From a bacterium (lineage in GTDB: Bacteria > UBA8248), in the NCBI GenBank assembly GCA_965207065.1, contig OZ242260.1, positions 2,810,017 through 2,874,016 on the forward strand: a DNA stretch of 64,000 nt, written 5' to 3'. Of this stretch, positions 3,056-53,463 are shown piece by piece. The notes beneath the pieces are model-generated. The model was not told the DNA's origin, did no database searches, and saw nothing but the letters and a program-made list of their open reading frames with translations. The position numbers and the translations under genes are program-made. Within the stretch, counting starts at the first letter, position 1; every line of letters starts with the position of its first letter.

Positions 3056-3862
3056 ATGTCGGAAATCCTTGTAGTCGGTGGCGGCAACATGGGCGAAGCG
3101 CTCGTCATGGGGATGGTGAATTCCGCCTATGCGAAAGTCGACGACATCGTCATCGCGGAGCCCCTGGCGGAGCGCGCCGAACATCTCCGGCAAGCTTCGG
3201 GATTTGCCGTGGTGTCCGATGGGGCCGAAGCGGCTCCCGAGGCGGAAAAAGTGGTGATCGCAGTGAAGCCGCAGGTGCTCGACGCTGTTCTGGGTGGGCT
3301 GAGGGACGCTCTCGCGCACCGACCGCTCCTGATTTCAGTCGTCGCGGGCGCGTCCACGAGCCGGTTCACGGGAATTCTGGGCGATGAGGCGCGCATCGTC
3401 CGCGTCATGCCGAACACGCCCGCCCTCGTGGGAGAAGGCGCCGCGGGGCTATGCGCCGGCGGAGGGGCGTCGGAAGCGGATTTATCGCAAGCGAAGCAGC
3501 TTCTGGAGTCCGTCGGCAAGGCAGTGGTCTTGCCTGAATCGCTGATGGATGCCGTGACTGGCTTGTCGGGCAGCGGTCCCGCGTATGTCTTCCAATTCAT
3601 CGAGGCGCTGGCGGACGGCGGGGTGAGGGCGGGCCTGCCCCGTGAGGAGGCGATGCTGCTGGCGACCCAGACCGTTTTGGGCTCCGCGCGGATGCTTCTC
3701 GAAACGGGAGAGCATCCGGGCCGCCTGAAGGACATGGTGGCCTCGCCCGGGGGAACGACCATCGCCGGCTTGCATGCGCTCGAAAACGGGGGACTGCGCT
3801 CCGCCGTCATCAACGCCGTCAGCGCCGCCGCGCGCAGAAGCGAGGAACTGGGCCGTGGCTAG
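3056..3862 (+). CDS. proC: pyrroline-5-carboxylate reductase
   Basis: N-terminal Rossmann motif VVGGGNMGEAL and ProC-like C-terminal region (ASPGGTTIAGL). Confidence 0.9.
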   Translation: MSEILVVGGGNMGEALVMGMVNSAYAKVDDIVIAEPLAERAEHLRQASGFAVVSDGAEAAPEAEKVVIAVKPQVLDAVLGGLRDALAHRPLLISVVAGASTSRFTGILGDEARIVRVMPNTPALVGEGAAGLCAGGGASEADLSQAKQLLESVGKAVVLPESLMDAVTGLSGSGPAYVFQFIEALADGGVRAGLPREEAMLLATQTVLGSARMLLETGEHPGRLKDMVASPGGTTIAGLHALENGGLRSAVINAVSAAARRSEELGRG

Positions 3863-5072: not shown

Positions 5073-5152
5073 AAGCCATGTGCCCGCGCAAAGCGATGAA
5101 TGAGAGAATCCGGATGGGCGGGAAAAAAGAGATTGAGGGAAATTTTCACACC

Positions 5153-6202
5153 ATGGCGTTTCGGGACGGCGCTCTCGTTCTTCTCGATCAGCGGAAACTT
5201 CCCCGAGAAGAGGTGTATCTCGAATACCGCACGGAAGACGATGTGGCCGAGGCCATCAAGACCATGGTGGTGCGCGGCGCGCCCGCCATCGGGATAGCGG
5301 CGGCTTATGGCATGGCCCTGGCCGCCGCCCGCCACGCGGGTTCAGGCGGCGATGCGCAGCGCGAGGCGCTCGAGCGGGCGGCCCGGGTGCTGGGCGACAC
5401 GCGCCCCACGGCGGTGAATCTCTTCTGGGCGATAGAAAAAATGATGGCGCACGTCGACCATAGCGACTCGGCGCCCGAAGGGCTGGCCGATGAACTCCTC
5501 CGCCTGGCGAGGGATATGCACGAGGAGGACGCCGCGATTTGCCGCCGGATAGGCGACCTGGGCGCTGAGTTGCTGCAGGAGGGGAGCAGCGTTCTCACCC
5601 ATTGCAACGCCGGCGCGCTTGCGACCGCAGGCTACGGCACGGCGGGCGGCGTGATTCGCAGCGGCTTTCGGGACGGACGGGTGCGGGAGGTTTTCGTGGA
5701 CGAGACCAGACCCTTCCTGCAGGGAGCGCGCCTCACCGCCTGGGAGTTGAGCCGCGACGGCATCCCCGTCGTGCTCATCACCGACAACATGGCCGCGCAT
5801 TGCATGAGCCTGGGAAGGATAGACGCGATTGTGGTAGGTGCGGACCGCGTGGCCGCGAACGGGGACGTCGCCAATAAAATCGGCACGTATGGCCTCGCGG
5901 TGCTCGCGAGAGAACACGGGGTGCCCTTTTACGTGGCGGCGCCGACGAGCACCGTCGACATGGAGGCGAAAAGCGGCGCGGACATTCCCATCGAAGAACG
6001 CCCCGAGGAGGAGGTTCGCTCCTTCGGCGGCCGGCCCGTCGCGCCGGAGGGGGTAAGCGTCTTCAACCCCGCTTTCGACGTGACGCCCGCGCGTTTCGTG
6101 GACGCCCTGGTGACGGAGCGGGGGGTAGTGCGCCTCGCGGAAGGGGAGTCTCTCGGCCTATACTACAAGATGTCAGGTTTGCCGTTTCAAAGCGAGATGT
6201 AG
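5153..6202 (+). CDS. mtnA: S-methyl-5-thioribose-1-phosphate isomerase (eIF-2B alpha/beta/delta family)
   Basis: MtnA-like sequence (LLDQRKLP, MVVRGAPAIGIAAAYG, ANKIGTYGLAVLA); start set to in-frame ATG 5153 after gaggga. Confidence 0.85.
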   Translation: MAFRDGALVLLDQRKLPREEVYLEYRTEDDVAEAIKTMVVRGAPAIGIAAAYGMALAAARHAGSGGDAQREALERAARVLGDTRPTAVNLFWAIEKMMAHVDHSDSAPEGLADELLRLARDMHEEDAAICRRIGDLGAELLQEGSSVLTHCNAGALATAGYGTAGGVIRSGFRDGRVREVFVDETRPFLQGARLTAWELSRDGIPVVLITDNMAAHCMSLGRIDAIVVGADRVAANGDVANKIGTYGLAVLAREHGVPFYVAAPTSTVDMEAKSGADIPIEERPEEEVRSFGGRPVAPEGVSVFNPAFDVTPARFVDALVTERGVVRLAEGESLGLYYKMSGLPFQSEM

Positions 6203-6212
6203 ACTGCTCGTG

Positions 6213-6242
6213 TTGACTTCCGGCACGCGTGCGGGCTATAAA
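6213..6242 (+). promoter_or_regulatory. candidate sigma70-like promoter for tRNA-Asp (TTGACT -35, TATAAA -10, 18-nt spacer)
   Basis: Hexamers read directly about 40 nt upstream of the tRNA 5' end. Confidence 0.3.
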
Positions 6243-6281
6243 CCGACATTCTTCGGGCGGTTTTGAAGAGTTGTTTTCATG

Positions 6282-6359
6282 GGGGCTGTAGCGAAGTTTG
6301 GTTATCGCGCTGGCCTGTCAAGCCAGAGATCGCGGGTTCGAGTCCCGTCAGCCCCGCCA
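6282..6359 (+). tRNA. tRNA-Asp (anticodon GTC)
   Basis: Manual cloverleaf: acceptor GGGGCTG/CAGCCCC, D-stem GCGA/TCGC, anticodon stem CTGGC/GCCAG with loop CTGTCAA, T-arm GCGGG-TTCGAGT-CCCGT, encoded CCA. Confidence 0.9.
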
Positions 6360-6672
6360 CTTTCAACTCCGCTCAGAATCTTCGCCTTTAAAGAGTATAC
6401 AGGCGAATATGCCGCTCATTCTCATGCCGACGTCAGAATTCGGGCGAGCTTTGGTCTTCGGCGGGGTGTTGGTGTATAGTAAATTTTAATGTATTCAATT
6501 TATTTTATTTATAGATTAAATTTCGCTTTCCTACATCATGAGCGAATCATTCATGATTTACCGGCGTATGGTTTGATCGGTGTCGATGGTATGTCGACGC
6601 TGTAAGACTTTGCGTCTTTTTACAACTCCTTGGGCCGTCTCAAGGAAGTCTTCTATTTCGAGGAGAAACGGA

Positions 6673-7662
6673 ATGAAAAGATTTGTTGGTTTCGCACTGG
6701 CCGCCGCGTTCGTAGTGGGTACGTTCGTGGTGGTCGCACCGGCCGAATCGGCGACGCTGCGAATCGGCGCGCACCGCTCCATGTGGGGTTCTTTCGAGAT
6801 TATCGCCGACCGCATGGGCTACTGGAAGAAAGAGGGCCTCAAATACACAATCGGCCACTTCAAGCAGGGCAAACTGATGCGCAACGCCATCATCCAGGAC
6901 AACCTGGATACCGGCACCACGGGTTTCTCGCCCTTCACCACGGCGATCTCCAAGGGCGCGCGGATCATGGGCATCGGCGTGACGGCGAACATGTGTGAAG
7001 CCATCAACATCATCGTGCCCGTGAAGTCGAAGGCGAAGAGCCTCAATGATCTCAAGGGCTCGGTGTTCGCCAACAAGAAGGGCACGAGCACGGACTTCTC
7101 CTTCCAGGCCTTCGTCCTTCCCGCGTATGGCCTGAAAAGCTCCGATTTCCCGCTTCTGAGCGTCCGCGCCACCGAGCGCATCGCCGCGCTGATATCCGGC
7201 GCCGCCAAGGCGGCCATGGTCGGCGAGCCGCAGGGTGAAATCGCCCGCGAGGCCGGCTACGTCCGCTATCTTGAGGACCTCTGCAAGTACGACAACCCGA
7301 GCATGATGCACGTGGGCAACCCCCAGACCATGAAAAAACACCCCGACCTTTACTACAAATACTTCCGGGGTTGGCTGAAGGCCCACCAGTTGGTGAAGAA
7401 CGACCCCGAGAAGTACGCCAAGGTCTATACCAAAGCGTTGCAGGAAGTCGGCGACAAGGCCAAGGAGAGCACCACGCTCAAGGTCATCAAGAAGCTGAAG
7501 TCCGAATTGTACCTGAGCGATCGCGTGAGGAGCTACCTGAACAAGATGGGTGACAAGCAGAAGGAATTCGGCTGGATCAAGAGCCGCCCAGACTTCAGAA
7601 AGAGCCCGTGGCTGAATGACTCCATCCTCCGCAAGGCCGCGAAGGACATCGGCTTCAACTAG
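6673..7662 (+). CDS. ABC transporter substrate-binding protein (nitrate/sulfonate/taurine NitT/TauT-like)
   Basis: Signal peptide (MKRFVGFALAAAFVVGTFVVVAPAES) then SsuA/NMT1-like periplasmic binding fold; start set to ATG 6673 with aggaga RBS. Confidence 0.8.
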   Translation: MKRFVGFALAAAFVVGTFVVVAPAESATLRIGAHRSMWGSFEIIADRMGYWKKEGLKYTIGHFKQGKLMRNAIIQDNLDTGTTGFSPFTTAISKGARIMGIGVTANMCEAINIIVPVKSKAKSLNDLKGSVFANKKGTSTDFSFQAFVLPAYGLKSSDFPLLSVRATERIAALISGAAKAAMVGEPQGEIAREAGYVRYLEDLCKYDNPSMMHVGNPQTMKKHPDLYYKYFRGWLKAHQLVKNDPEKYAKVYTKALQEVGDKAKESTTLKVIKKLKSELYLSDRVRSYLNKMGDKQKEFGWIKSRPDFRKSPWLNDSILRKAAKDIGFN

Positions 7663-7692
7663 GCGACACGTATACGCAAGACGCAAAACAAA

Positions 7693-7730
7693 AGCCCCCG
7701 GGAGTATCCGCTCCCGGGGGCTTTTGTTTT
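7693..7730 (+). terminator. Rho-independent terminator
   Basis: Perfect 12-bp GC stem AGCCCCCGGGAG/CTCCCGGGGGCT, 6-nt loop, then TTTTGTTTT; A-run on the 5' side. Confidence 0.75.
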
Positions 7731-7804
7731 GCTGGAGCCGGATGATCACGCCCTGGATCGGGTTGTTGAAAACGCCTTCATCGGTCGGGGTCGCGGTATT
7801 CGGT

Positions 7805-7970
7805 AGTCAGACAGGCTCCCGTGTTTGTCCGAGGTCGCTGTAGGGACAGGTTGTCCCTACGGGCTCACCTCCCGCCGTCATTCCGGCGGCGCCAAATTCC
7901 GAGTGAGGAGAGGTTTTTCAACAACCCCAAGTAGAGGGTTTGTAGGGACAGGCCCCTGTGCCTGTCCGAG
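7805..7970. repeat. cluster of REP-like palindromes (GTAGGGACAGG...CCTGTCCCTAC family)
   Basis: Palindrome gtagggacaggttgtccctac at 7840-7860; gtagggacaggcccctgtgcctgtccga at 7942-7968 recurs identically at 49236. Confidence 0.5.
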
Positions 7971-8232
7971 GCATCCGGACCTCTTCTTGCAAAGCGCAAC
8001 CGCTGGGATGGAATGGAAATACAAATACGGGTGGACATAGAGGTTCATGGCGGCCACGGAGGGCCGCCCCTACGGAAGCTCCACCGCCTTTTGAAACCAA
8101 TCCCCCACAGGGGGCTATTTCCTGTATCTGTGGGTAGTAGAAGGTGCGCGCAGGACTCATCCTCCCGAAACATAAAAAAACCGGGCGCGACTCTCGTCGC
8201 GCCCGGCAGGTAAGCGTTTGTATTTGTTCTGG

Positions 8233-9159
8233 TTACACTTTTTTGTCCTGCGCGCCCATCGCCTCCATCATACCCCAGCGGATGACGGTGCGGCTCTCGA
8301 TGGGCTGGAAGAGCGCCTTCTCGAGAATGAAGCCGAAAAGCCCAAGTACGGAAAGAGCAACCATCATGAACGCGATGTCGAGGTATTCCTGCGCGTCGAA
8401 AATGCCGGCGGAAAGTCCCCAGCGGATGCCCGCGAACGCCTCCGCCCCCACGCCGGCGCGCCAGGCGCGCGCCAATCCGATGCGCAGACCGCTCAGAATC
8501 ATCGGGAGCGAGCCGGGCAGGACGACGGTGCGGAAAATCGTCATCTTGTCCGCGTTCATCGACTGGGCCGCGCGTATCCATACCGGGTTCACGGTTTTCA
8601 CCCCCGTCCAGACCGCCATGGCGATGGGCAGGAACGAGGCGAAGGCCGTGATGACGATGACCGTCTGATCTCCGATGCCCGACCAGATGACGACGATGGG
8701 TGTCCACGCGATGGCCGGAATCGGCAGCAACACGGAGAGAAGCGGCACGAAGAACGATTCCCAGAAAGCGAAGCGTCCCATCAAGATTCCCACGATGGTG
8801 CCCACGATGGCGGCGATAAAGAACGAGAACGGAAGGCGCCACGCGGTGTTGAGCGTATGGAGCAGAATCGGGCTCTCAAAAAGTTTCCAGATCTGATCCA
8901 TGATTCCCAGGTTCGGGTTCTCGGCCAATGCACGGAACAGGGGATCGGTGACGAGTTCCCATGCCCTGAAGACAATCGCGTCCACGGTGGGGAAGAGCCT
9001 GCCCTGGTTGCCCTGGGCCTGCATGGCGGCGACTTGCCAGATGGCGAGGATGACGATGAACGGGTAGATCGGCCTGAGCTTCACCCAAATGGGCGACCTC
9101 ACCTCTTTTTTCTTCTCGTCCAACGATGGAGGAACAGGCGTTGCCTCGGTTGTCTGCAT
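8233..9159 (-). CDS. ABC transporter permease (NitT/TauT family)
   Basis: Multi-TM protein with the binding-protein-dependent permease fold typical of SsuC/TauC. Confidence 0.85.
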   Translation of the reverse strand: MQTTEATPVPPSLDEKKKEVRSPIWVKLRPIYPFIVILAIWQVAAMQAQGNQGRLFPTVDAIVFRAWELVTDPLFRALAENPNLGIMDQIWKLFESPILLHTLNTAWRLPFSFFIAAIVGTIVGILMGRFAFWESFFVPLLSVLLPIPAIAWTPIVVIWSGIGDQTVIVITAFASFLPIAMAVWTGVKTVNPVWIRAAQSMNADKMTIFRTVVLPGSLPMILSGLRIGLARAWRAGVGAEAFAGIRWGLSAGIFDAQEYLDIAFMMVALSVLGLFGFILEKALFQPIESRTVIRWGMMEAMGAQDKKV

Positions 9160-9172
9160 GGATAATTCCTCT

Positions 9173-9919
9173 CTAAAAATCGCGAATCAAATCGTTCACG
9201 TGTTTTTGCAGTTTGATGAACTCGGGCGCGAGGTCGTCGCGGGGCCTGGGTAGATCGACTCTCACGATCTCGCGGATTCTCCCCGGATTCGGTACAAACA
9301 CGACGATCCGGTTCCCGAGATAGACGGCTTCGCTCAGGTTGTGCGTGACATAGAGGATCGTCTTTTTCGTCTTCTGCCATACGTCGACGGTCAACTCCTG
9401 CAACTCCTCGCGCGTCTGGGCGTCGAGCGCGCCGAAGGGCTCGTCCATCAGTAGGATTTGCGGGTCGAACGCCATGGCTCTCGCCACCGCCACGCGCTGG
9501 CGCATACCGCCCGAGAGGTTGTGGGGAAAGAAATCGGCAAATTCCTCGAGGCGGACGAGACGAAGAAACTCGAACGCGATTTCTCTGCGCTCCTTCTCGG
9601 GGAAGTTTCTGATCTCGAGGCCGTATTCCACGTTCTGTCTGGCCGTGCGCCACGGGAAGAGGGCGTATTCCTGGAACACGACGCCCTTGTCGTAGTCCTG
9701 GGTGAGCGTTTTTCCGTCCATGGTGATTGTGCCCGCGGTGATCTCGACGAAGCCGGCGAGCATGTTCAGCAGCGTCGTTTTTCCGCAGCCCGAAAGCCCC
9801 ACGAGGCAGATGAACTCGCCGTCCTCGATGTTGAGGGTCACATCCTCGAGAGCGTGGACTCTTCTTTCGGGTGTGTCATAGATTTTTCTCAAATTCTGAA
9901 TCGATATTTTGGTTACCAT
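9173..9919 (-). CDS. ABC transporter ATP-binding protein (NitT/TauT family)
   Basis: Walker A GLSGCGKTT, signature LSGGMRQR, Walker B LLMDEPFGALD; start set to internal Met (MVTKISIQNL). Confidence 0.9.
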   Translation of the reverse strand: MVTKISIQNLRKIYDTPERRVHALEDVTLNIEDGEFICLVGLSGCGKTTLLNMLAGFVEITAGTITMDGKTLTQDYDKGVVFQEYALFPWRTARQNVEYGLEIRNFPEKERREIAFEFLRLVRLEEFADFFPHNLSGGMRQRVAVARAMAFDPQILLMDEPFGALDAQTREELQELTVDVWQKTKKTILYVTHNLSEAVYLGNRIVVFVPNPGRIREIVRVDLPRPRDDLAPEFIKLQKHVNDLIRDF

Positions 9920-10205: not shown

Positions 10206-11429
10206 ATGGATGGTCGACTTCCGCTGGAGGGGCTTCGGATACTGGCGGTGGAGCAGTTCGGCGCGGGGCCGCTGGCCTCGCAACTGTTGGCGGACATGGG
10301 GGCCGAGGTCCTGAAAATCGAGGACCACGCCGTGGGCGGCGATTCCGCGCGGCCCGTCCCCCCGTATGCCCTGCCGGACAACGACAGCTATTATTTCCAG
10401 TCCTTCAACCGCAACAAGAAGAGCGTCGCGCTTAGGATTCGCACGCCCGAGGGCAAGGCCATACTGCGAAGACTCGTGCCGAAAGCGGATGCGCTCTATG
10501 CGAATTGCCGGGGTGATGCGCCGGAGAAACTCGAATTAACATATAAACACTTAAGCCCCTACAACGAGAAAATCGTGTGCTGTTTCCTCTCAGGCTACGG
10601 GATGACGGGACCCAGAGCGCCCGAGCCGGCCTATGACTACCTCATGCAGGCCTATGCGGGCATCATGGACCTGACGGGAGAGCCCGACGGTCCCCCCACC
10701 AAGGCGGGCGTGAGTTTCGTGGATTTCTCGGGCGGGTTCATATCGCTCGTCGGCCTGCTGGCCGCGTTGTGGGAGGCGAACCGCACCGGCAAGGGCAGGG
10801 ACGTAGACGTTGCGCTCATGGACGGCGCCCTGGTTCAGCTTGCGTACATGGCCACCTGGGCGCTCAACTGCGGCTACGTGCCGCAAAAATTCTCCCGAAG
10901 CGCGCATCCCTCGATGGTGCCCGCGCAGAATTTCGAGACCAAAGACGGCTGGATAAGCGTGCTTTGCCTGAAACAGAGTTTCTTCCCCATCCTCGTCGAG
11001 CGCATGGGGATGCCGGCGCTGGCCGAGGACCCGCGCTTCAAGCTGGCGCAGGATCGTTTCGAGAACCGGGTAGTTCTGCTGGATATTCTCGAAAGGGCGT
11101 TTCAGGAAAAGACGAACGCGGAGTGGACCGACCTGCTCCAGGGCCACGTTCCCTTCGCGCCGGTGAACACCGTGGCGCAGGCGATGGAAGACCCCCAGAT
11201 TCTGGCGCGGGACATGATTGTCGAGATGGAGCACCCCGCGGCGGGGACGATGAAGGTACTGGGGCCGCCCATCAGGCTGCCGGGCGCGGATATGAAGTAC
11301 AAGCGGGCGCCTTATCTGGGCGAGCACACGAGAGAGGTTCTGGGCGATCTGCTCGGTATGGAGGATGACGAACTCGAGGTCTTGAGAGAGAAAAATATCG
11401 TATCCTGGAACACTCCGCCTGAGGGGTAG
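10206..11429 (+). CDS. CoA transferase, family III (CaiB/BaiF-like)
   Basis: Family III CoA-transferase N-terminal pattern (LEGLRILAVEQFGAGP...LADMGAEVLKIE); start set to in-frame ATG 10206. Confidence 0.8.
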   Translation: MDGRLPLEGLRILAVEQFGAGPLASQLLADMGAEVLKIEDHAVGGDSARPVPPYALPDNDSYYFQSFNRNKKSVALRIRTPEGKAILRRLVPKADALYANCRGDAPEKLELTYKHLSPYNEKIVCCFLSGYGMTGPRAPEPAYDYLMQAYAGIMDLTGEPDGPPTKAGVSFVDFSGGFISLVGLLAALWEANRTGKGRDVDVALMDGALVQLAYMATWALNCGYVPQKFSRSAHPSMVPAQNFETKDGWISVLCLKQSFFPILVERMGMPALAEDPRFKLAQDRFENRVVLLDILERAFQEKTNAEWTDLLQGHVPFAPVNTVAQAMEDPQILARDMIVEMEHPAAGTMKVLGPPIRLPGADMKYKRAPYLGEHTREVLGDLLGMEDDELEVLREKNIVSWNTPPEG

Positions 11430-43953: not shown

Positions 43954-46900
43954 TCAAGAACATCCACTCGTCGCGCCACAAGTCATACATTTCAGGCACG
44001 TCCCGTTTCGCACTAAGGTGAACAAACCACAATCGCTGCAAGCTTCCCCCTCATACCCTTTCGCGCGGGCTTCTTCGATGCGTGAATCAATTGCGGAGCT
44101 TGCTTCCGTTATGGGTGTCATCGAAGTTTGGGTGGATTCTGTCTCATAATTCAGACTTATCCGGTCGCTGCGCGGTGCGCTTGCATCCGGTCCCGGGAAT
44201 ATGGTTTGAATCTCTTCTTCTTCCTCGGTATCGAATTCCGGAATCTCTTCCTGGGGGCGCCCGATGGTGTCGCTCCTCAAGTCCTCCGACACGACTTGCG
44301 CCAGGTCGTGGCGACCGAGATATGAAACCGCCAGTTCACGGAAGATGTAATCGATGATGGATGTGCTCATCTTGATGTGCGGGTTGCCCGAGACCATACC
44401 CCCCGGCTCGAATCGTGTGAATACGAAGGCATCCACGAATTCATCCAATGGGACGCCGTGTTGGAGCCCCAGCGAAATTGCGATGGCGAAACAATTCATG
44501 AGGCTTCTGAAGGCAGCGCCTTCTTTGTGCATATCTATGAAAATTTCGCCGATGGAGCCGTCCTCGTACTCACCGGTTCTAAGATATACCTTGTGACCGC
44601 CAATGACGGCTTTTTGTGTGTATCCACCGCGGCGGGTAGGCAACTTGCGTCTTCTGGACTGGTAAATGATCCGGCGCACAATCTGCTGGGCTACATGCAC
44701 GGGGGCACTTTGGGTAGCTGGTTCTTCTTCGCCGATATCACTGAAGAGTTCTGCTTCGCTTTGTGCGGAAAGTGGTTGGCTTAGTTTCGAGCCATCGCGG
44801 TAAATCGCTATGGCTTTGGTCATCCGCTGCCACGATTCGTTGTAGATGTCTAAAATATCTTGAATCGTTGATTCCGCGGGCATGTTGATGGTTTTGCTGA
44901 TGGCGCCAGATATGAAAGGCTGCGCCGCCGCCATCATTCGAACATGGGCCATGGGGCTGATGAAACGCTTGCCTTCTCGTCCGCATTTGCTCGCGCAATC
45001 AAAAACGGCTAGATGCTCTTCTTTTAGGTGGGGCGCCCCCTCAAGCGTCATTTTCCCGCAAACGAAATCATTCGCTTCGCTGATTTGTTCTGGAGTGAAA
45101 CCAATGGCTTCGAGCAGATTCAGGTTCCAGTCGGCTATTTGCGCTTCGCTGAGCCCTAATTGCTCAATGCAGAAGTCATCACCGAGGGAATGTTTGTTGA
45201 AGGCGAACTGGATTTCAAACGCCCCTTCGAGAGCAGCTTCCACTTTTTCCAGAGCCTTGCTCGTAAACCCTTTCTCGTGCAAAGACTCTGGATTGATATG
45301 AGGAGCATTCGTGAGGGTCCCCCGCCCTCGGCAGTAGGCGACGATTTCGCGGATCTCTTCATCGTCATAGCCTAGATGCCGCAAGGCAGCGGGAACGGAT
45401 TGGTTGATGATCTTGAAATAACCGCCTCCGGCCAGTTTTTTGAATTTCACCAAAGCAAAATCCGGCTCGATTCCCGTTGTGTCACAATCCATCACCAAAC
45501 CAATTGTGCCTGTCGGCGCGATGACAGTGGCTTGTGCGTTCCGGTAGCCGTTTCGATAGCCGATGGCCAAAGCATCATCCCACGCCTCACGCGCCGCTTG
45601 GAGAAGATAATGGGGGCAGATTTCCGCAGCGATTCCTGCTGGTGCCTTCGAGAGCATTTCGTATTCTGCCTCCGGCACAGAATAAGCTGCGCGGCGGTGG
45701 TTTCTCAGAACCCGCAACATGTGCTCTTGGTTGTCCTGATACCTTGAGAAAGCGCCCATTTCCCCTGCCATCTCGGCGCTGGTGGCATACGAGCAGCCGG
45801 TCATGATGGAGGTGAGAGCGCCGCACCATGCTTCCGCTTCAAGTGAGTCGTAAGGGATGCCAAGAACCATTAACAAGGTGCCCAGATTGGCGTACCCAAG
45901 TCCTAAAGTTCGATACTCGAATGAGCGTTTGGCTATTTCCGGACTGGGGAATTGCGCCATCAGTACTGAAATTTCGAGGACGACTGTCCATAGGCGAATA
46001 ACATGACGATAGTCTTCTATCTGAAAGTGGTTTTTTTCAGTATCCAAGAATTTTATGAGATTCATCGACGCTAGATTGCATGCGGTATCATCCAAGAACA
46101 TGTATTCTGAGCAAGGATTAGAGCCGTTGATGCGACCATCGGCGGTGCACGTGTGCCAGTCGTTGATGGTTGTGTCAAATTGAAGGCCAGGGTCTGCGCA
46201 ACACCACGCTGCATATCCAATCTGATTCCAAAGTTCTTTCGAACTGACGGAGTCCGCGATTTCGCCGTCAGTGCGCCGTATCAGGTTCCAATCCGAGTTT
46301 TTCTCGGTAGCTTCCATAAAATCATCTGAAACGCGGATGGAATTGTTCGAGTTTTGACCGGAAACCGAGATGTAGGCCTCGCCTTCCCAATTTGTATCGA
46401 GCTCTTCGAACTCGATTTCGGTGATGCCTTGACGTGCAAGTTGGAGAGTCCGATGGATATAATTATCCGGAACGCCGGCGAGTCTTGCGGCCCGAATTGC
46501 TTTGGTGAGTGATGGGTTTTTATCCGGCTGGTACAAGTTGCCATTCAAGCTCAGGTTCTTTCCTTCCAGGCAAGCCCCGAGAATGGCGTTCATGTGCCGG
46601 TTGCACATCTTGCTGCCCGAAACCAGGGCGGCCACTTTCTGTTCTTCGTGCACCTTCCAGTTGATGAATTCCTCGATGTCGGGGTGGTCGATGTCGAGCG
46701 TGACCATTTTCGCCGCGCGCCGAGTGGTGCCGCCCGACTTGATCGCGCCCGCGGCGCGATCCCCAATCTTGAGGAAACTCATGAGGCCGGAGCTTCTTCC
46801 ACCTCCTGAGAGAGATTCCCCCTCCGCTCTCAAATTCGAGAAATTCGTGCCGGTGCCCGAGCCGTATTTGAAAATGCGCGCCTCGCGCGTCCATAAATTC

Positions 46901-47550
46901 ATGATCCCGCCCTCGTTGACGAGATCATCTTTCACCGATTGGATGAAGCACGCATGCGGTTGAGGACGCTCATAGGCGTTGGTGGAGCGGAGTATTTCCC
47001 CGCTTTCGGGATCGCAATAAAAATGTCCCTGGGCGGGGCGCGTGATGCCGTAGGCCCAGTGCAGGCCCGTATTGAACCACTGTGGCGAGTTGGGGGCCGC
47101 CATCTGGCTCGCTAGTATGTATAAAAGCTCCTCATAGAACGCTTTGGCGTCTTTTTCCGCGTGAAAATAACCGTGTTTCCAGCCCCAATAGGTCCAGCAT
47201 CCCGCCAGGCGATGGAAAACGTCCCGGGCGTCGCGCTCGCTTCCGAATCGCTCATCCTCGGGCAGGGACTCAAGTTTTTCCGTGTCCGGCTCCGAGCGCT
47301 GCAGCCATTCGGGCACTCCCTCTTCGGAAACTTTGTTTAAATGTGTGGGGACGCCGGCTTTTCGGAAGTATTTTTGCGCTAGAATGTCGACGGCCACCTG
47401 AGACCAGCTCTCAGGCGCCATGATGTCCTTCGCTTCGAAGACGACCGAGCCGTCCGGGTTGGTGATGCGCGAGGTGCGCGGCGTGAAACCGACCTCGCCG
47501 TACGCGTCATCTCCGGCCCGGGTGAATCGCCTCGTAAACTCCACGCCCAT
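43954..47550 (-). CDS. nrdJ: adenosylcobalamin-dependent ribonucleotide reductase (class II)
   Basis: 1198 aa; class II RNR layout with Cys-rich C-terminal tail ([22 protein letters not shown]); ggagga RBS before ATG. Confidence 0.9.
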
Positions 47551-48430: not shown

Positions 48431-48796
48431 TCAGTCCTGCTCCAGGAGGACGGCCAGCTTCTCCAGCGCTTCGCCCACCACGCGCGGCGGAGCCTGCGAC
48501 GCGAGGCGCGCCTTTCGCGCCCGCCAGTCGAGGCTCTTCACCTGATCGGCGAGCACCACGCCCGTAACGGGGCCATCGGCGGGGAGCGCCACCTCGAAGG
48601 GATAGCCCTTGGCTCTCGAAGTGACGGGACAGAGGAGCGCCAGACTGCTTTTCTCGTTATAGCTTCGCGGGCTGACGACCAGCGCGGGGCGGCGGCCCGC
48701 CTGCTCATGCCCCGCCTGGGGGGTGAAGGAGAGCCAGACGACGTCGCCCCTGCCCGGAACGTAGTCCGCGTCCGAAACCACCGGTCTCGCTACCAC
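48431..48796 (-). CDS. mazF: type II toxin, MazF/PemK family endoribonuclease
   Basis: PemK/MazF pattern (GDVVWLSFTPQAGHEQAGRRPALVVS, LCPVTS, VVLADQVKSLDWRARKA). Confidence 0.85.
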   Translation of the reverse strand: MVARPVVSDADYVPGRGDVVWLSFTPQAGHEQAGRRPALVVSPRSYNEKSSLALLCPVTSRAKGYPFEVALPADGPVTGVVLADQVKSLDWRARKARLASQAPPRVVGEALEKLAVLLEQD

Positions 48797-49029
48797 GCCT
48801 CAATGCCCTGCGCCGGGCCTGCGTCCTGTTCGGCGTGGAGGTTGTCCGCGTTCATCTCAGCGAGCATGTCGGCCAGCCGGTAGCCTCTCTTGCGCATCAC
48901 CACCCTGTCGCCGCGCGCGCTCATCTCGATGGCCGAACCCTCCCGGACGCCCCATTGCTCGGCGATGGGCTTCGGGATGCGGACGGCCAGGCTGTCGCCC
49001 CACTTTGCGATATGCGATTTCGCGCCCAT
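48790..49029 (-). CDS. mazE: type II antitoxin, MazE/AbrB-SpoVT family
   Basis: 79 aa with swapped-hairpin motif (AKWGDSLAVRIPKPIAEQWGVREGSAIEM); overlaps mazF start. Confidence 0.8.
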   Translation of the reverse strand: MGAKSHIAKWGDSLAVRIPKPIAEQWGVREGSAIEMSARGDRVVMRKRGYRLADMLAEMNADNLHAEQDAGPAQGIEAW

Positions 49030-49235: not shown

Positions 49236-49307
49236 GTAGGGACAGGCCCCTGTGCCTGTCCGAAGCCTCTCTTCCGGCAAGGGACAACCACGGGGGGTTG
49301 TCCCTAC
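49236..49307. repeat. REP-like palindromes
   Basis: 49236-49263 identical to 7942-7968; second palindrome gggacaaccacggggggttgtccctac at 49281-49307. Confidence 0.5.
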
Positions 49308-49517: not shown

Positions 49518-50252
49518 TTATCCGCGTGTTTTGTCCGTGCTGAAAGCTCCAGGCATTTCGTCCCACGTCCTGTCGTCCAGCGTTCGGCCCGTCTTTTTCT
49601 TGAACACGCCGCCCCATTGCTTGAAGAAAAAGGGCGTACCGCTGTGCACGCAGTTGTCGCGAATCTCTCTCACCCAGTCCGGCTCCATAAGCCTTGCGCC
49701 CGGCCCGGATTCCCCGCCGACGATCACCCAGTCGATGCCTGTAAAGTCCAGGCCCGGCAAAGGACCCAGCAGGGGTTCGAGAGAGAGAAACTTCGTCCGG
49801 GCACCGGTTTCTCGGAGCGGCCCCAGACGTCCGAGCCATTTTTCGGATTCGATGCTCGCGCCGAGCCAGATGTTGGGCGTCCAGTTCAACTTCCTGCCGA
49901 GCAGAGCGGCCCGGCCCGGGCGCTTGGTGAGCACCTGAAACGTGTGCCGGGTCGAGCGGTTCATCACGTCGAAAACGGACTCGATGAAACCGGACGGCAC
50001 CGATTGATGAAACAGATCGGACATGGAGTTGACGAATACGAGGCGCGGTTTCTTCCATCTCAGGGGTTCATCGAGAGAGGACTCGTGGGTGGCGAGGGAG
50101 AACCCGTTCTTGTACTTCTCGACTCCCATACTTTGGAGCCGTTTCGACATTCTCTCGGCGTAGCAGTGCTTGCATCCGGGGCTGATCTTCGTGCAGCCGG
50201 TCACCGGGTTCCAGGTCATCTCGGTCCACTCGATGCTGGAAATCGTCGACAT
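49518..50252 (-). CDS. phage Gp37/Gp68 family protein (DUF5131)
   Basis: N-terminal [27 protein letters not shown] Cys motif characteristic of that family. Confidence 0.75.
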
Positions 50253-50494
50253 GGCTAGATGTGCTCCAGTACGTGCTTTGCAATCCGAGTAGCTGGCTTG
50301 ATTCCTCTAGGATTGCCTACGCAAAATAAAAAAACAAACAACGCCGAATTCTTGGAATTTCTGAAAGTCCGGGAATTATTGAGAAACCGGTCTCCAAAGA
50401 GGTGTTCAAGGTTTCTCTTGTAGATGGAGATAAGGTTGTCTGTTTGACTCTTACGACGGGCTCATTTGATCTTAAGGGCTTATCAATGAACCAA

Positions 50495-50911
50495 TCAAAT
50501 ACTGAGAATGAATTCATCCTTGTACATGGTAAAATGAACTTCCGAAAGAAAATCCATGCCAAGCAATACATCAAAATTTTCAGGCTGGAACGGAAGTAGG
50601 GAAACTTCAATTTCCTTGCCTCGTAGATTGAGCCATGCTCCGGCTCCTCCCCCCGACGCCTCTATTTGATCTCCAATCGGGATGTCGACCTTGACCCTGT
50701 ATTTTTCAGTTTGGATTGGATCCCCGCTGACGGGAATGATGTCGGTAAAACCGATGCTGGACAGTTTTCCTTCATCGACCACCTTCTGAGATATCATGGT
50801 GCCTTGCGCACCCGTATCCAGTATCGCCGGATAGGATTTAGGCTCGGTCCGCGCCGATGGCGGGCTCCCGATCGAAATGGCGACAAACAGGCGGATTTCC
50901 CTGTTTTCCAC
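50495..50911 (-). CDS. retropepsin-like (clan AA) aspartic protease
   Basis: 138 aa with active-site LDTGAQ in a pepsin-like half-barrel-length protein; lower-GC segment. Confidence 0.7.
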   Translation of the reverse strand: MENREIRLFVAISIGSPPSARTEPKSYPAILDTGAQGTMISQKVVDEGKLSSIGFTDIIPVSGDPIQTEKYRVKVDIPIGDQIEASGGGAGAWLNLRGKEIEVSLLPFQPENFDVLLGMDFLSEVHFTMYKDEFILSI

Positions 50912-50949
50912 TCGACCCCGGAATGTAGGGATTTAGAGTTTATTTGACT

Positions 50950-51225
50950 TCAGGATTTGGGTAGACACATGGTGAAAACGCCGAGAGATATTGGCGGTTC
51001 GCCAATTTTTTCAATCGAGAAATTACCGAGACCGAATTTCTCGCAGCCAATCGCATATGCGTCACCGCTATCGTCATATATTTCCACAACTTCCCCGTCA
51101 TGGAGCAATGCCGCCCTTCCGAAGTGTTCGGCCTCCATTTCTTCCTTTATGGCGTTGTACGCAGCTCGGTTCTTAACAAGCTGTGAGTTCATCTTCCTAC
51201 CCTCCCGCAAGTAGGCGAATATCAA
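50950..51225 (-). CDS. small hypothetical protein upstream of the retropepsin-like gene (possibly DUF5678-like)
   Basis: 91-aa ORF, same strand, 38 nt upstream of the protease gene; family assignment is from memory only. Confidence 0.4.
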   Translation of the reverse strand: MIFAYLREGRKMNSQLVKNRAAYNAIKEEMEAEHFGRAALLHDGEVVEIYDDSGDAYAIGCEKFGLGNFSIEKIGEPPISLGVFTMCLPKS

Positions 51226-51362
51226 TCCCTGAAGGATTGAAAATCATCGCATATTTTTAGCTGGAAGTTAACTCTATATTCACAGTTCATACTCCCACCT
51301 GGCAAGGACAAGTGATTATGCTTGTCCTTCAAGCGTAAAGCGGCACTGCTCCCGCCGGAAAT

Positions 51363-51643
51363 TCATTCCCGGAACAAATCGGAGTGCGAACCCGTGCGGA
51401 CGAGGCGCAACTCGTTTCCTCTGATGCGGTAGATCAAGAGCCAGTCCGGCTCGAAGTGGGCTTATTGGGATCCTCTCCATATTCCGCGCAGCGGATGATC
51501 GAGATTGCGCGCAGGCAGCGGCTCCTGGCGGATGAGCGAGTTGAGCAACTCCCGCAGTTTGGTGAGGTCTTTCCCTCGCCTCCGGGCTCTTCTCACGTCG
51601 CGCTTGAATTGCGATGAACCAGTACTTACAGACCCAAATCCTC
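51363..51643 (-). pseudogene. YafQ-like (RelE superfamily) toxin gene interrupted by an in-frame TAA
   Basis: Frame reads ...FKRDVRRARRRGKDLTKLRELLNSLIRQEPLPARNLDHPLRGIWRGSQ-stop-AHFEPDWLLIYRIRGNELRLVRTGSHSDLFRE; stop at 51462-51464. Confidence 0.5.
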
Positions 51644-51883
51644 GAACAACTCCTCGGCGCTGTCGAAGCGCTCCCCCTTGCCCTCGTCGAGTTCTTTCAT
51701 CGCCTTGCGGGTGGCGGGGTTCGGCGCGCGGACGACGAAGGGCAGCCTTCGCTCCTCCGCCACGCGCATCATGAGCAGGCGAATCGCATCCGATACCGAA
51801 AGGCCCATCGCGTTCAGCGCCTCCGTGGCACGGGCCTTGGTCTCGCTGTCGATTCGGGCGCGGACTACAGTATCCGTCGGCAT
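51626..51883 (-). CDS. type II antitoxin, RelB/DinJ family
   Basis: 85 aa with ribbon-helix-helix N-terminus (VVRARIDSETKARATEALNAMGLSVSDAIRLLMMRVA). Confidence 0.75.
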   Translation of the reverse strand: MPTDTVVRARIDSETKARATEALNAMGLSVSDAIRLLMMRVAEERRLPFVVRAPNPATRKAMKELDEGKGERFDSAEELFEDLGL

Positions 51884-52056
51884 TTGGCGTCCTCCTCTCG
51901 TGTAGCCTCATTGTAGCTACATCACCTCGTCCCCCATGTCAAGGGCAATTCCCTGTGGTTTTAGACTGAATCCCTCCCCCCGTTTGGCATCGGCGCGGAA
52001 CCTTGGTCTAATGGTCGCGGTTTTTTTCGTTGAGCGCCTTACCCGAAGGAGGAAGT

Positions 52057-53463
52057 ATGGCGGCGTATGACGTGGCGGTGATCGGAGGGGGGCCTGCGGG
52101 CTATGTGGCGGGCGTGCGCGTCGCGCAGAGCGGCGGAAGCTGCGTGGTCATCGAGCGCGACGAGCTGGGCGGCACCTGCCTGAACTGGGGCTGCATCCCC
52201 AGCAAGAGCTTAATCGCCGCCGCGGAAGTTTTGAGGAACATCAGGAACGCGGACGCCTACGGGGTCGAAGTCACGGGCGAGGTGCGCGCCGACCTCGCCG
52301 CCATGGTCGAGCGCAAGGACAAGATTGTCGCAGGCCTGGTGAAGGGAATCGGCGGGCTGTTCAGGGCCCACGGGGTGGACCACATGGCGGGCGACGCCGA
52401 GATTCTGGAGATGGGCAAGATTTCCGTGCGCGGAAAAGAAGGGGAACACGAGATAGTCGAGGCCGATAAGATCATCATCTGCACCGGTTCCCGGCCCGCG
52501 CAGATTCCCGCCTTTCCCATCGACGGCAATAAAATCATTTCTTCCGAGCAGGCCGTGCACCTGAAATATCTGCCCGAGCGGTTGCTCATCGTCGGCGCGG
52601 GCGTCATCGGCTGTGAGTTCGCGTGTCTCTATAAAGAGCTTGGCGCCAGGGTCGTCATGGTGGAGTTGCTCGACCGGGTCCTGCCGCTGGGTGATGAGGA
52701 TGTCTCGAAACTCATGGCGCGTGAATTAAGAAAACAGAAGATCAAGGTGCGCCTGAATGAGAAGTTAACGGGCGTCTCGCGCAAGGATGATGAGATGGTC
52801 GCGCAATTCGAGGGTTCGGACGAAGAAGAGCGCGCGGACCTCGTGCTCGTCTCCGTGGGCCGGACGATGAACACCGACGGCCTGGGTCTCGAGCGAATCG
52901 GCGTCGAACTCGGCCCGCGCGGCGAGATCAAGGTGAACGAGATGATGGAGACGAACGTGGCGGGAGTCTACGCGGCGGGCGACGTGGTGGGCGAGCCCAT
53001 GCTCGCGCACGTGGCCTCGGCGGAAGGGGTCGCTGCGGCGGAAAACGCCATGGGCGCGGAGATACGGATGGATTACCGCGCGATTCCGGCGGGCATCTTC
53101 ACGCATCCCGAGATCGGCGTCGTCGGCATGGCCGAACACGAGGCGGAGAAGGCGGGTCACGCGGTGCGCGTGGGCAAGTTCTCGGTTCGCGCTCTCGGCA
53201 AGGCGCAGGCCGAACGCGCGCTGGAAGGCGAGGTGAAGGTCATCGCCGACGCGGGGGATGACGCCATTCTGGGCGTGCACATCGTGGGCGCCCACGCCGC
53301 CGACATCGTGCACGAGGCCGCCGTCGCCATGCAGCACCGCGTAACCGCCTCCGACCTGGCCGGCACCATCCACTCCCACCCCACGCTTTCGGAAGCCGTC
53401 ATGGAGGCGGCATTGGACGTGCACGGCGAGGCCATCCACGCCCCGCCGAGGAAACGTTCATAA
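52057..53463 (+). CDS. lpdA: dihydrolipoyl dehydrogenase
   Basis: FAD motif VIGGGPAGY, redox-active disulfide GGTCLNWGCIPSK, NAD motif and C-terminal interface His (HSHPTLSE). Confidence 0.9.
   Translation: MAAYDVAVIGGGPAGYVAGVRVAQSGGSCVVIERDELGGTCLNWGCIPSKSLIAAAEVLRNIRNADAYGVEVTGEVRADLAAMVERKDKIVAGLVKGIGGLFRAHGVDHMAGDAEILEMGKISVRGKEGEHEIVEADKIIICTGSRPAQIPAFPIDGNKIISSEQAVHLKYLPERLLIVGAGVIGCEFACLYKELGARVVMVELLDRVLPLGDEDVSKLMARELRKQKIKVRLNEKLTGVSRKDDEMVAQFEGSDEEERADLVLVSVGRTMNTDGLGLERIGVELGPRGEIKVNEMMETNVAGVYAAGDVVGEPMLAHVASAEGVAAAENAMGAEIRMDYRAIPAGIFTHPEIGVVGMAEHEAEKAGHAVRVGKFSVRALGKAQAERALEGEVKVIADAGDDAILGVHIVGAHAADIVHEAAVAMQHRVTASDLAGTIHSHPTLSEAVMEAALDVHGEAIHAPPRKRS

Follow-up and report, generated by a model that had tools for sequence, protein, structure and literature searches.

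A horizontally mobile two-gene cassette pairs a retropepsin-like protease with a small partner protein and may be toxin–antitoxin-like

A two-gene cassette, in which a small gene directly precedes a gene for a retropepsin-like aspartic protease, was analysed in a 64,000-nucleotide (nt) stretch of DNA, here called the window, from a bacterium of the GTDB lineage UBA8248 (assembly GCA_965207065.1, contig OZ242260.1, positions 2,810,017 to 2,874,016). The two genes are tightly linked, appear to evolve together and travel as a unit, and the protease gene decays far more often than its neighbour. The reading that we favour, and to which we give an even chance of being right, is that the cassette is toxin–antitoxin-like (TA-like), with the protease as a harmful effector and the product of the small gene, the partner, as its inhibitor. 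An earlier note on this DNA, made from its letters, had described the pair as a module poor in guanine plus cytosine (GC) and had suggested a mobile or defence-associated role for it.

Linkage and joint evolution of the two genes

Loci were collected with a scan for the protease motif, using a narrow retrieval motif and one genome per GTDB species, and 66 protease-anchored loci were obtained. The partner gene lies directly upstream and on the same strand in 64 of them, at a spacing of 6–54 nt, and the two exceptions are protease fragments; conservation of the small open reading frame (ORF) beside the protease, which the earlier note had named as a check, was thereby confirmed. The pairing persists down to ∼24% protease identity. 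When the partner served as the anchor, a protease gene followed downstream in all seven metagenome contigs, and three of six further partner homologues also have a protease beside them, with a TTG or GTG start that the gene caller missed or mis-called. The association of partner and protease is real, not a product of chance.

The rates of non-synonymous relative to synonymous substitution (dN/dS) among four close relatives were 0.04–0.14 for both genes (0.06–0.13 for the partner), which indicates purifying selection on each. The divergences of partner and protease correlate pairwise (Mantel r=0.75, p=0.001), as sequences that co-evolve would. Clustering of the flanking ORFs at the 66 loci revealed no third conserved gene; the most recurrent cluster, found at seven loci, is a zinc-ribbon protein that we take to be a putative transposase.

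An exhaustive profile search also recovered partner and protease fused in a single chain, in P0316 (235 amino acids (aa), DTG intact) and P0285 (219 aa, DTG changed to ATG), together with several chains that carry two partner domains in tandem (for example, P0268 and P0327). Two partner domains in one chain would be well placed to bind an enzyme that is a dimer, and the natural fusions and tandem chains suggest a physical association between partner and protease. At one further locus (L076, 6001–6811), a top-scoring partner homologue, P0226, is followed 74 nt on by a GGACT/AIG2-like gene of the gamma-glutamyl cyclotransferase family. No protease remnant was found near P0226, and this single instance may represent a partner swap or a coincidence.

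The protease

The earlier identification of a retropepsin-like DTG protease was upheld. The protein scores above the Pfam gathering scores of PF13975 (30.7 versus 28.2 bits), PF13650 (28.5 versus 24.3) and PF08284 (27.9 versus 20.3), and far below the NCBIfam cut-offs of TIGR03698 (clan_AA_DTGF, 17.7 versus 57.35 bits) and TIGR02281 (clan_AA_DTGA, 17.0 versus 57.95 bits); judged by these scores it is not a member of either subfamily. Alignment of 76 homologous sequences, the check proposed for the active site, showed D39-T40-G41 and L124-G125-M126-D127 to be invariant, and DTGA or DTGS is present in every intact locus of the census described below. An AlphaFold2 model (predicted local distance difference test score (pLDDT) 87, predicted template-modelling score 0.80) had as its top Foldseek matches Rickettsia APRc (5c9f), feline immunodeficiency virus protease, human DDI1 and Rous sarcoma virus protease, all at probability 1.0 and with template-modelling scores of 0.45–0.66. 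Of the proteins with solved structures, yeast Ddi1 was the closest in sequence (E 5e-6). Motifs, profiles and predicted fold together identify the protein as a single-lobe retropepsin-like aspartic peptidase (MEROPS clan AA). It is acidic and has neither a signal peptide nor a membrane segment. An exact-sequence look-up of the 138-aa form encoded in the window returned no record, and a comparison of PHROGs with both protease and partner gave nothing below E 0.02.

The 138-aa length given earlier corresponds to an existing ORF, read from a GTG on the minus strand (50495–50911) and containing AILDTGAQ, but it is not the length of the family: homologues have 143–145 aa and start with MPTF..., seven codons upstream of this GTG. 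At the ancestral start the window copy has lost its ATG (Table 1), a lesion that appears recent and strain-specific. The next in-frame start is the GTG at 50909–50911, and its use would cost the protein residues 1–7 and most of the predicted beta-strand 1 (residues 3–9). Strand 1 of retropepsins contributes to the terminal sheet of the dimer interface. Because the ATG is lost and a start at the GTG would remove most of this strand, the window protease is probably attenuated or inactive. Its reading frame is unbroken and looks to be under constraint still, and the partner gene is intact; the locus may be on its way to an orphan-antitoxin state, as is the neighbouring RelB/YafQ pair. The protease start codon has been lost in three loci including the window (ATC, ATA and TGC).

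Gene callers often skip or shorten the protease gene, and TTG or GTG is the start codon of many copies. Miscalled examples are found at L074 (6250–6687), L078 (2767–3183) and L080 (2831–3256) and in proteins P0009, P0016 and P0073–P0082, and database entries of 78–100 aa begin past the DTG motif. Intact proteases, and the pairing too, are therefore under-represented in protein databases.

The partner and the upstream region

The 91-aa ORF noted earlier upstream of the protease and on the same strand does exist (50950–51225, read from a TTG on the minus strand). The translation start, though, is most likely the ATG at 51192, since a GGGAGG ribosome-binding site precedes it and this start is common to all homologues, giving a protein of 80 aa. 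When homologues of the partner are clustered at 90% identity, 611 clusters result; at 50%, the family has 910 representatives. The profile searches that the earlier note had called for, which placed the protease above Pfam cut-offs, found for the partner just sub-threshold matches to DUF5678: the window protein scores 12.2–12.6 bits against a gathering score of 23.2, and 10 of 23 family members have such matches (best E 1.7e-4). The partner would thus be at most a distant relative of DUF5678.

An AlphaFold2 model of the partner (pLDDT 79) predicts a helix (residues 2–23), a hairpin (27–39), a second helix (42–53) and a strand (59–62), followed by a conserved tail for which pLDDT falls to 68 and then to 46 across the last two blocks. 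Two residues of this tail, G64 and P67, never vary and two more, L70 and G71, almost never do; the tail is a candidate for the segment that binds the protease. The protein is acidic and lacks a signal peptide. Upstream of the gene, an imperfect inverted repeat is a possible operator, of which just the left arm is invariant across four close relatives. A scan for sigma-70 promoters upstream of the cassette gave 0 sites.

Mobility, hosts and habitat

Mobility was the better supported part of the earlier suggestion of a mobile or defence-associated module. Comparison of the window with its sister loci L001 and L002 showed similarity over exactly 50474–51279, with 88–89% nt identity, and syntenic flanks with 87–90% nt identity to the window. 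The immediate flanks of the cassette are unrelated to those in L001 and L002, because there it is placed elsewhere, on the lpdA side of RelB, whereas in the window and in L067 it lies beyond RelB/YafQ'. Up to three copies can occupy a single region: in the multi-copy genomes L009, L028 and L061, two or three copies lie within 12 kb. One of these, the gammaproteobacterial metagenome-assembled genome (MAG) L009, has two complete cassettes on opposite strands and an orphan partner (2238–2903, 5725–6408 and 7441–7665) within 6 kb.

The composition of the cassette also sets it apart. The AT-richer patch reported earlier was confirmed, with 48.6% GC in the cassette versus 60.7% in the flanks, and 43–52% in 400-nt windows of the patch versus 55–69% around it. 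The same holds for 57 of 57 intact modules, which average 52.7% GC versus 62.3% in their flanks, with a gap of up to 24 points in some Alphaproteobacteria.

Judged by record names, the hosts belong to approximately nine phyla. The host groups are Chloroflexota, Alpha- and Gammaproteobacteria, Bryobacterales, Rhodothermales, Longimicrobiales, Acidimicrobiia, Nitrospirales and Thermodesulfobacteriota, and a near-identical partner protein carries the name Nitrospinae. The closest cross-phylum pair is a Nitrospirales copy, 76–77% identical to alphaproteobacterial copies. Taken together, these results make the case that the cassette is an autonomous, horizontally mobile two-gene unit a well supported one.

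The cassette is apparently associated with sponges. All 66 records are MAGs; several bear the names of sponge-symbiont genera (Poriferisodalis, Poriferisocius, Spongiisocius and Porisulfidus), others come from a symbiosis genome-note series, and further bin labels belong to what we take to be sponge MAG sets. We infer the restriction to sponges from these names and from loci retrieved with a narrow motif. Seven loci were found among 241 million metagenome records of the Joint Genome Institute.

In L001 and L002, a segment of ∼1.3 kb with the cassette inside it has on either side a direct repeat of ∼110 bp, made up of the lpdA 5' end and its upstream region (L001, ∼5090–5200 and 6534–6644; L002, ∼5384–5492 and 6542–6650). 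The window has a single copy of this repeat, at 51978–52088. The repeats may be the footprint of an insertion mechanism.

Asymmetric decay

A census of decay was made over the 75 modules that lie away from contig edges. Both genes were intact in 56. The protease was frameshifted, truncated or split by an insertion beside an intact partner in 13, and the reverse case, a frameshift in the partner beside an intact protease, was found once (L003). Orphan partner genes occur at L009, L076, L077 and L079, and once these are added protease losses outnumber partner losses by ∼18:1, against a neutral expectation from gene lengths of ∼1.8:1. A binomial calculation by hand gave P ∼0.02 for 1 in 14 and ∼0.003 for 1 in 19, values that overstate significance because some losses go back to a common ancestor (one frameshift is common to L026 and L030, for instance). 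We put the number of independent protease losses in the census, by estimate rather than by calculation, at about 12. A downstream gene that is lost while its upstream neighbour is kept is a signature of toxin–antitoxin systems. In L050 (5902–7599) and L056 (4888–6183), the protease is split by an insertion of ∼0.9–1.3 kb and the partner is intact.

The pattern of loss bears directly on which protein could be harmful. Were the roles reversed, the small protein would be the toxin and the protease an enzymatic antitoxin that cleaves it. Enzymatic antitoxins occur in other TA types, the small protein varies less than the protease, and its conserved disordered tail could be the cleavage site. However, intact small genes beside broken or absent proteases, and orphan small genes, would then be lethal, and a small gene in first position follows the usual antitoxin-first order. 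We regard this explanation as very improbable and rejected it on account of the orphan genes, which contradict a toxic small protein.

The islet and its neighbouring genes

The cassette lies in an islet of 4.5 kb flanked by two housekeeping genes (Table 1), in which a search with profiles identified MazEF and RelB. The surroundings named in the earlier note, MazEF, REP-like (repetitive extragenic palindromic) repeats and a decayed YafQ on the side away from the DUF5131 gene, were all found again.

Table 1. Coordinates of the cassette, its parts and the genes around it, in positions of the window.
Feature	Position	Strand	Remarks
Whole conserved cassette, ∼0.8 kb	50474–51279	-	∼85 nt upstream region, partner, 17-nt spacer, protease, ∼20 nt tail
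Retropepsin-like aspartic protease gene	50495–50932	-	145 codons counted from the ancestral start; hidden Markov model match from profile position 1 at 50932
Start-codon lesion	50930–50932	-	ATC; ATG in the three closest relatives (L001, L002, L067) and in protein P0002
Catalytic motif D39-T40-G41-A42	50807–50818	-	Read from the sequence; D39-T40-G41 at 50810–50818
LLGMD, residues 123–127, second retropepsin signature	50552–50566	-	Aligns to Ddi1 'vLiGlDml'
Partner gene, 80 aa, distantly DUF5678-like	50950–51192	-	ATG preceded by a GGGAGG ribosome-binding site
Partner C-terminal tail, residues 63–80	50953–51006	-	Conserved motif IGEPPISLGxFT; predicted disordered
Imperfect inverted repeat, 12-nt arms, 83% complementary	51217–51245	-	25–53 nt upstream of the partner ATG
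Islet, 4.5 kb	Between the class II ribonucleotide-reductase-like gene and lpdA		Recognisable islet genes all on the minus strand
Class II ribonucleotide-reductase-like gene	43954–47550	-	Islet boundary
MazF	48431–48796	-	Profile search
MazE	48790–49029	-	Profile search
Spacer, 490 nt	Between the DUF5131 gene and MazE		Contains a REP-like palindrome
DUF5131 (Gp37/Gp68-like) gene	49518–50252	-	E 2e-98
YafQ remnant	∼51363–51617	-	In-frame TAA at 51462–51464
RelB, intact	51626–51883	-	Profile search
lpdA	52030–53463	+	Islet boundary

The C-terminus of YafQ can still be read past the in-frame TAA (AHFEPDWLLIYRIRGNELRLVRTGSHSDLF), and RelB/YafQ appears to be the islet's second pair in which the toxin is dead and the antitoxin still live. 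A GC-rich palindrome of 34 nt with the core GGGACAGGCCCCTGTGCCTGTCC occurs twice in the window (49236–49269 and 7942–7975) and again in the sister L001 (near 3214–3243, 3633–3657 and 10292–10520); it resembles a REP element or a miniature inverted-repeat transposable element. The protease stop is separated from the DUF5131 gene by 242 nt of AT-rich DNA (50253–50494, ∼43% GC), present in L067 and not in L001 or L002. Neither Pfam, PADLOC nor Rfam gave a match to this stretch, its plus strand included, and it contains no convincing ORF. ORFs at 47.6–48.4 kb had zero Pfam matches, and Rfam searches of the region and of the whole window found just two tRNAs, both away from the cassette.

The DUF5131 gene, which had been placed beside the module, is indeed adjacent, but incidentally, as it is unlinked at other loci. 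Its matches to PDC-M41B and PDC-M30B, both PADLOC candidates, are very strong (E 1e-113); neither the window nor L001 was found to contain a PDC-M41A or PDC-M30A partner for it. Directly upstream of the L001 copy of the DUF5131 gene (8507–9247) lies a gene for a pentapeptide-repeat membrane protein (7130–8434). DUF5131 was considered as a functional partner of the cassette and rejected, being unlinked elsewhere and lacking its own A gene.

The defence-associated part of the earlier suggestion is weakly supported. As a specialised form of the TA-like reading, the same two proteins could make up an anti-phage system acting by abortive infection, if the partner responds to a signal from the phage, or is itself destroyed in the course of infection, and so frees the protease to kill the cell or arrest it; the cassette would then be a distant relative of PDC-M08, a two-gene phage-defence candidate of PADLOC (Payne et al. 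2024 preprint, bioRxiv 10.1101/2024.01.29.577857). PDC-M08 is itself a two-gene cassette embedded in known defence systems, and four PDC-M08B models are matched by up to 73 of the 76 proteases. These matches, to PADLOC models that have no published cut-off, are weak (E 1e-4 to 1e-7, best 1.6e-7; window protein 1.4e-4). The match of the neighbouring DUF5131 to PDC-M41B and PDC-M30B points the same way, as do the small retropepsin-domain proteins found alongside type III CRISPR loci of Sulfolobales (PMC3973734). By contrast, none of 59 members of the partner family matches PDC-M08A at E up to 1, the PDC systems are candidates by prediction, and no conserved defence neighbour emerged among the 66 loci; the missing A gene of DUF5131 and its lack of linkage to the cassette elsewhere count in the same direction. 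We consider this explanation quite improbable.

Discussion

The TA-like reading draws on several lines of evidence at once: the strict linkage of two genes with no third component, selection and co-evolution, asymmetric decay, natural fusions, behaviour like that of a mobile element, location in an islet of TA modules (MazEF and RelB/YafQ) and the weak PDC-M08B match. Under this reading, the downstream gene would encode a cytoplasmic single-domain retropepsin-like protease, presumably a homodimer, that acts as the harmful effector. The 80-residue acidic product of the upstream gene would bind the protease and keep it inactive, probably by placing its conserved disordered C-terminal tail in the substrate cleft or at the dimer interface. 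Were the partner lost or outnumbered, as might happen under stress, when the cassette is lost or perhaps during infection by a phage, the unbound protease would cut proteins of the cell and halt its growth. The cassette may additionally act in abortive infection. A broader claim, that this is the founding family of a kind of TA or abortive-infection system, with a retrovirus-type protease as toxin and an 80-residue inhibitor of new fold, confined to sponges and transferred across approximately nine phyla, we would place somewhat below an even bet.

Several observations weigh against the TA-like reading. No recognisable DNA-binding domain was found in the partner and no convincing conserved operator upstream of the cassette. 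The mean pairwise identity of the partner (0.46) exceeds that of the protease (0.38); in most type II TA pairs the antitoxin is the less conserved protein, and the cassette shows the reverse. Plasmids and viruses are the classical habitats of addiction modules, but a search of IMG/VR viral contigs with both family profiles recovered zero relatives and a tblastn search of PLSDB plasmids with both proteins zero matches. Not all of the decay events are phylogenetically independent, and orphan partners could persist as well if the partner had a function of its own. No literature precedent was found for a toxin of retropepsin type in a TA system, and we infer binding, inhibition, toxicity and proteolytic activity alike.

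Some of these points would suit a non-toxic, regulated protease, engaged in the processing or turnover of particular proteins, perhaps sponge-related, with the partner as its adaptor, cofactor, chaperone or substrate/pro-peptide. Such a role would fit a partner that is well conserved over its whole length, under strong purifying selection and without a recognisable DNA-binding domain, as well as the failure to find the cassette on plasmids or viral contigs, and an apparent restriction to sponge MAGs would fit a niche-specific function. Yet two proteins that need each other should decay in proportion to gene length, and the protease has been lost ∼13–18 times for each loss of the partner. Cassettes that are multi-copy, shuffled and AT-rich and lie in TA islets are also untypical of housekeeping genes, and direct action on the sponge host is unlikely, since both proteins are acidic and without a signal peptide. 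We therefore judge a regulated protease to be a rather unlikely explanation.

If the TA-like reading is correct, TA and abortive-infection systems would gain aspartic proteolysis, a type of toxin not known among them, and the partner would be a natural protein inhibitor of the retropepsin fold, the fold of Ddi1 and of the protease of human immunodeficiency virus, a drug target. To our knowledge, bacterial retropepsin-like proteases are numerous and almost wholly uncharacterised. The apparent restriction to sponge symbionts, combined with transfer across phyla, would make the cassette convenient for tracing gene flow within the sponge holobiont, and its two proteins, small and soluble, are easily cloned.

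No publication describing the cassette was found, and literature searches on DUF5678 function, on retropepsins with antitoxins, on PDC-M08 and on sponges with these Pfam families returned nothing relevant. The fold and the TA-like organisation are each known; their combination and the partner family appear to be undescribed. Similarity of the partner to DUF5678 is weak and covers the hairpin-helix core (partner residues 31–63 versus profile positions 14–46 of 49); the model leaves out the N-terminal helix and the conserved tail.

For the protease, the closest known relatives are the prokaryotic single-domain peptidases of clan AA (COG3577/COG5550 'pSNCAPs' and APRc, 5c9f), which, like the cassette protein, have a single lobe of ∼120–145 residues with a DTG and a hydrophobic-Gly-x-Asp motif. 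The APRc of Rickettsia conorii is the best structural match of the predicted protease (Foldseek E 7.5e-6, probability 1.0). Unlike APRc and the periplasmic RloA, however, the cassette protease has no membrane anchor or signal peptide, and unlike the pSNCAPs and APRc it invariably has a dedicated gene for a small partner beside it. A 2009 survey described the prokaryotic retropepsin-like families as little known (PMC2642776), and the functional literature that we found on bacterial retropepsin-like enzymes was limited to the membrane-bound Rickettsia APRc.

The active-site stretch is very similar to that of the retroviral-protease-like (RVP) domain of Ddi1 (LLDTGAQxTxIS..vv...gL in the cassette versus FVDTGAQTTIMSTRLAKKTGL in yeast). 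Ddi1, however, is eukaryotic and has ubiquitin-like (UBL) and ubiquitin-associated (UBA) domains, whereas the cassette protease is bacterial, lacks these domains and stands in an operon with a small partner; the corresponding Pfam family, PF09668, gives just E 0.09. With PDC-M08 the cassette has in common a retropepsin-like second gene (∼128 aa in PDC-M08).

The last comparison is with type II TA systems such as MazEF and RelB/YafQ. The cassette differs from these in that its putative toxin is an aspartic protease and not a nuclease, kinase or similar enzyme, in that its putative antitoxin has no recognisable DNA-binding fold and is more conserved than the toxin, and in that it was not seen on plasmids (PLSDB) or phages (IMG/VR). 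It resembles them as a small two-gene operon that begins with a small acidic protein; like them it is autonomous, shuffled, multi-copy, AT-rich relative to its host and clustered with other TA modules, and it is patchily distributed, with a downstream gene that decays preferentially and an upstream gene that persists as an orphan.

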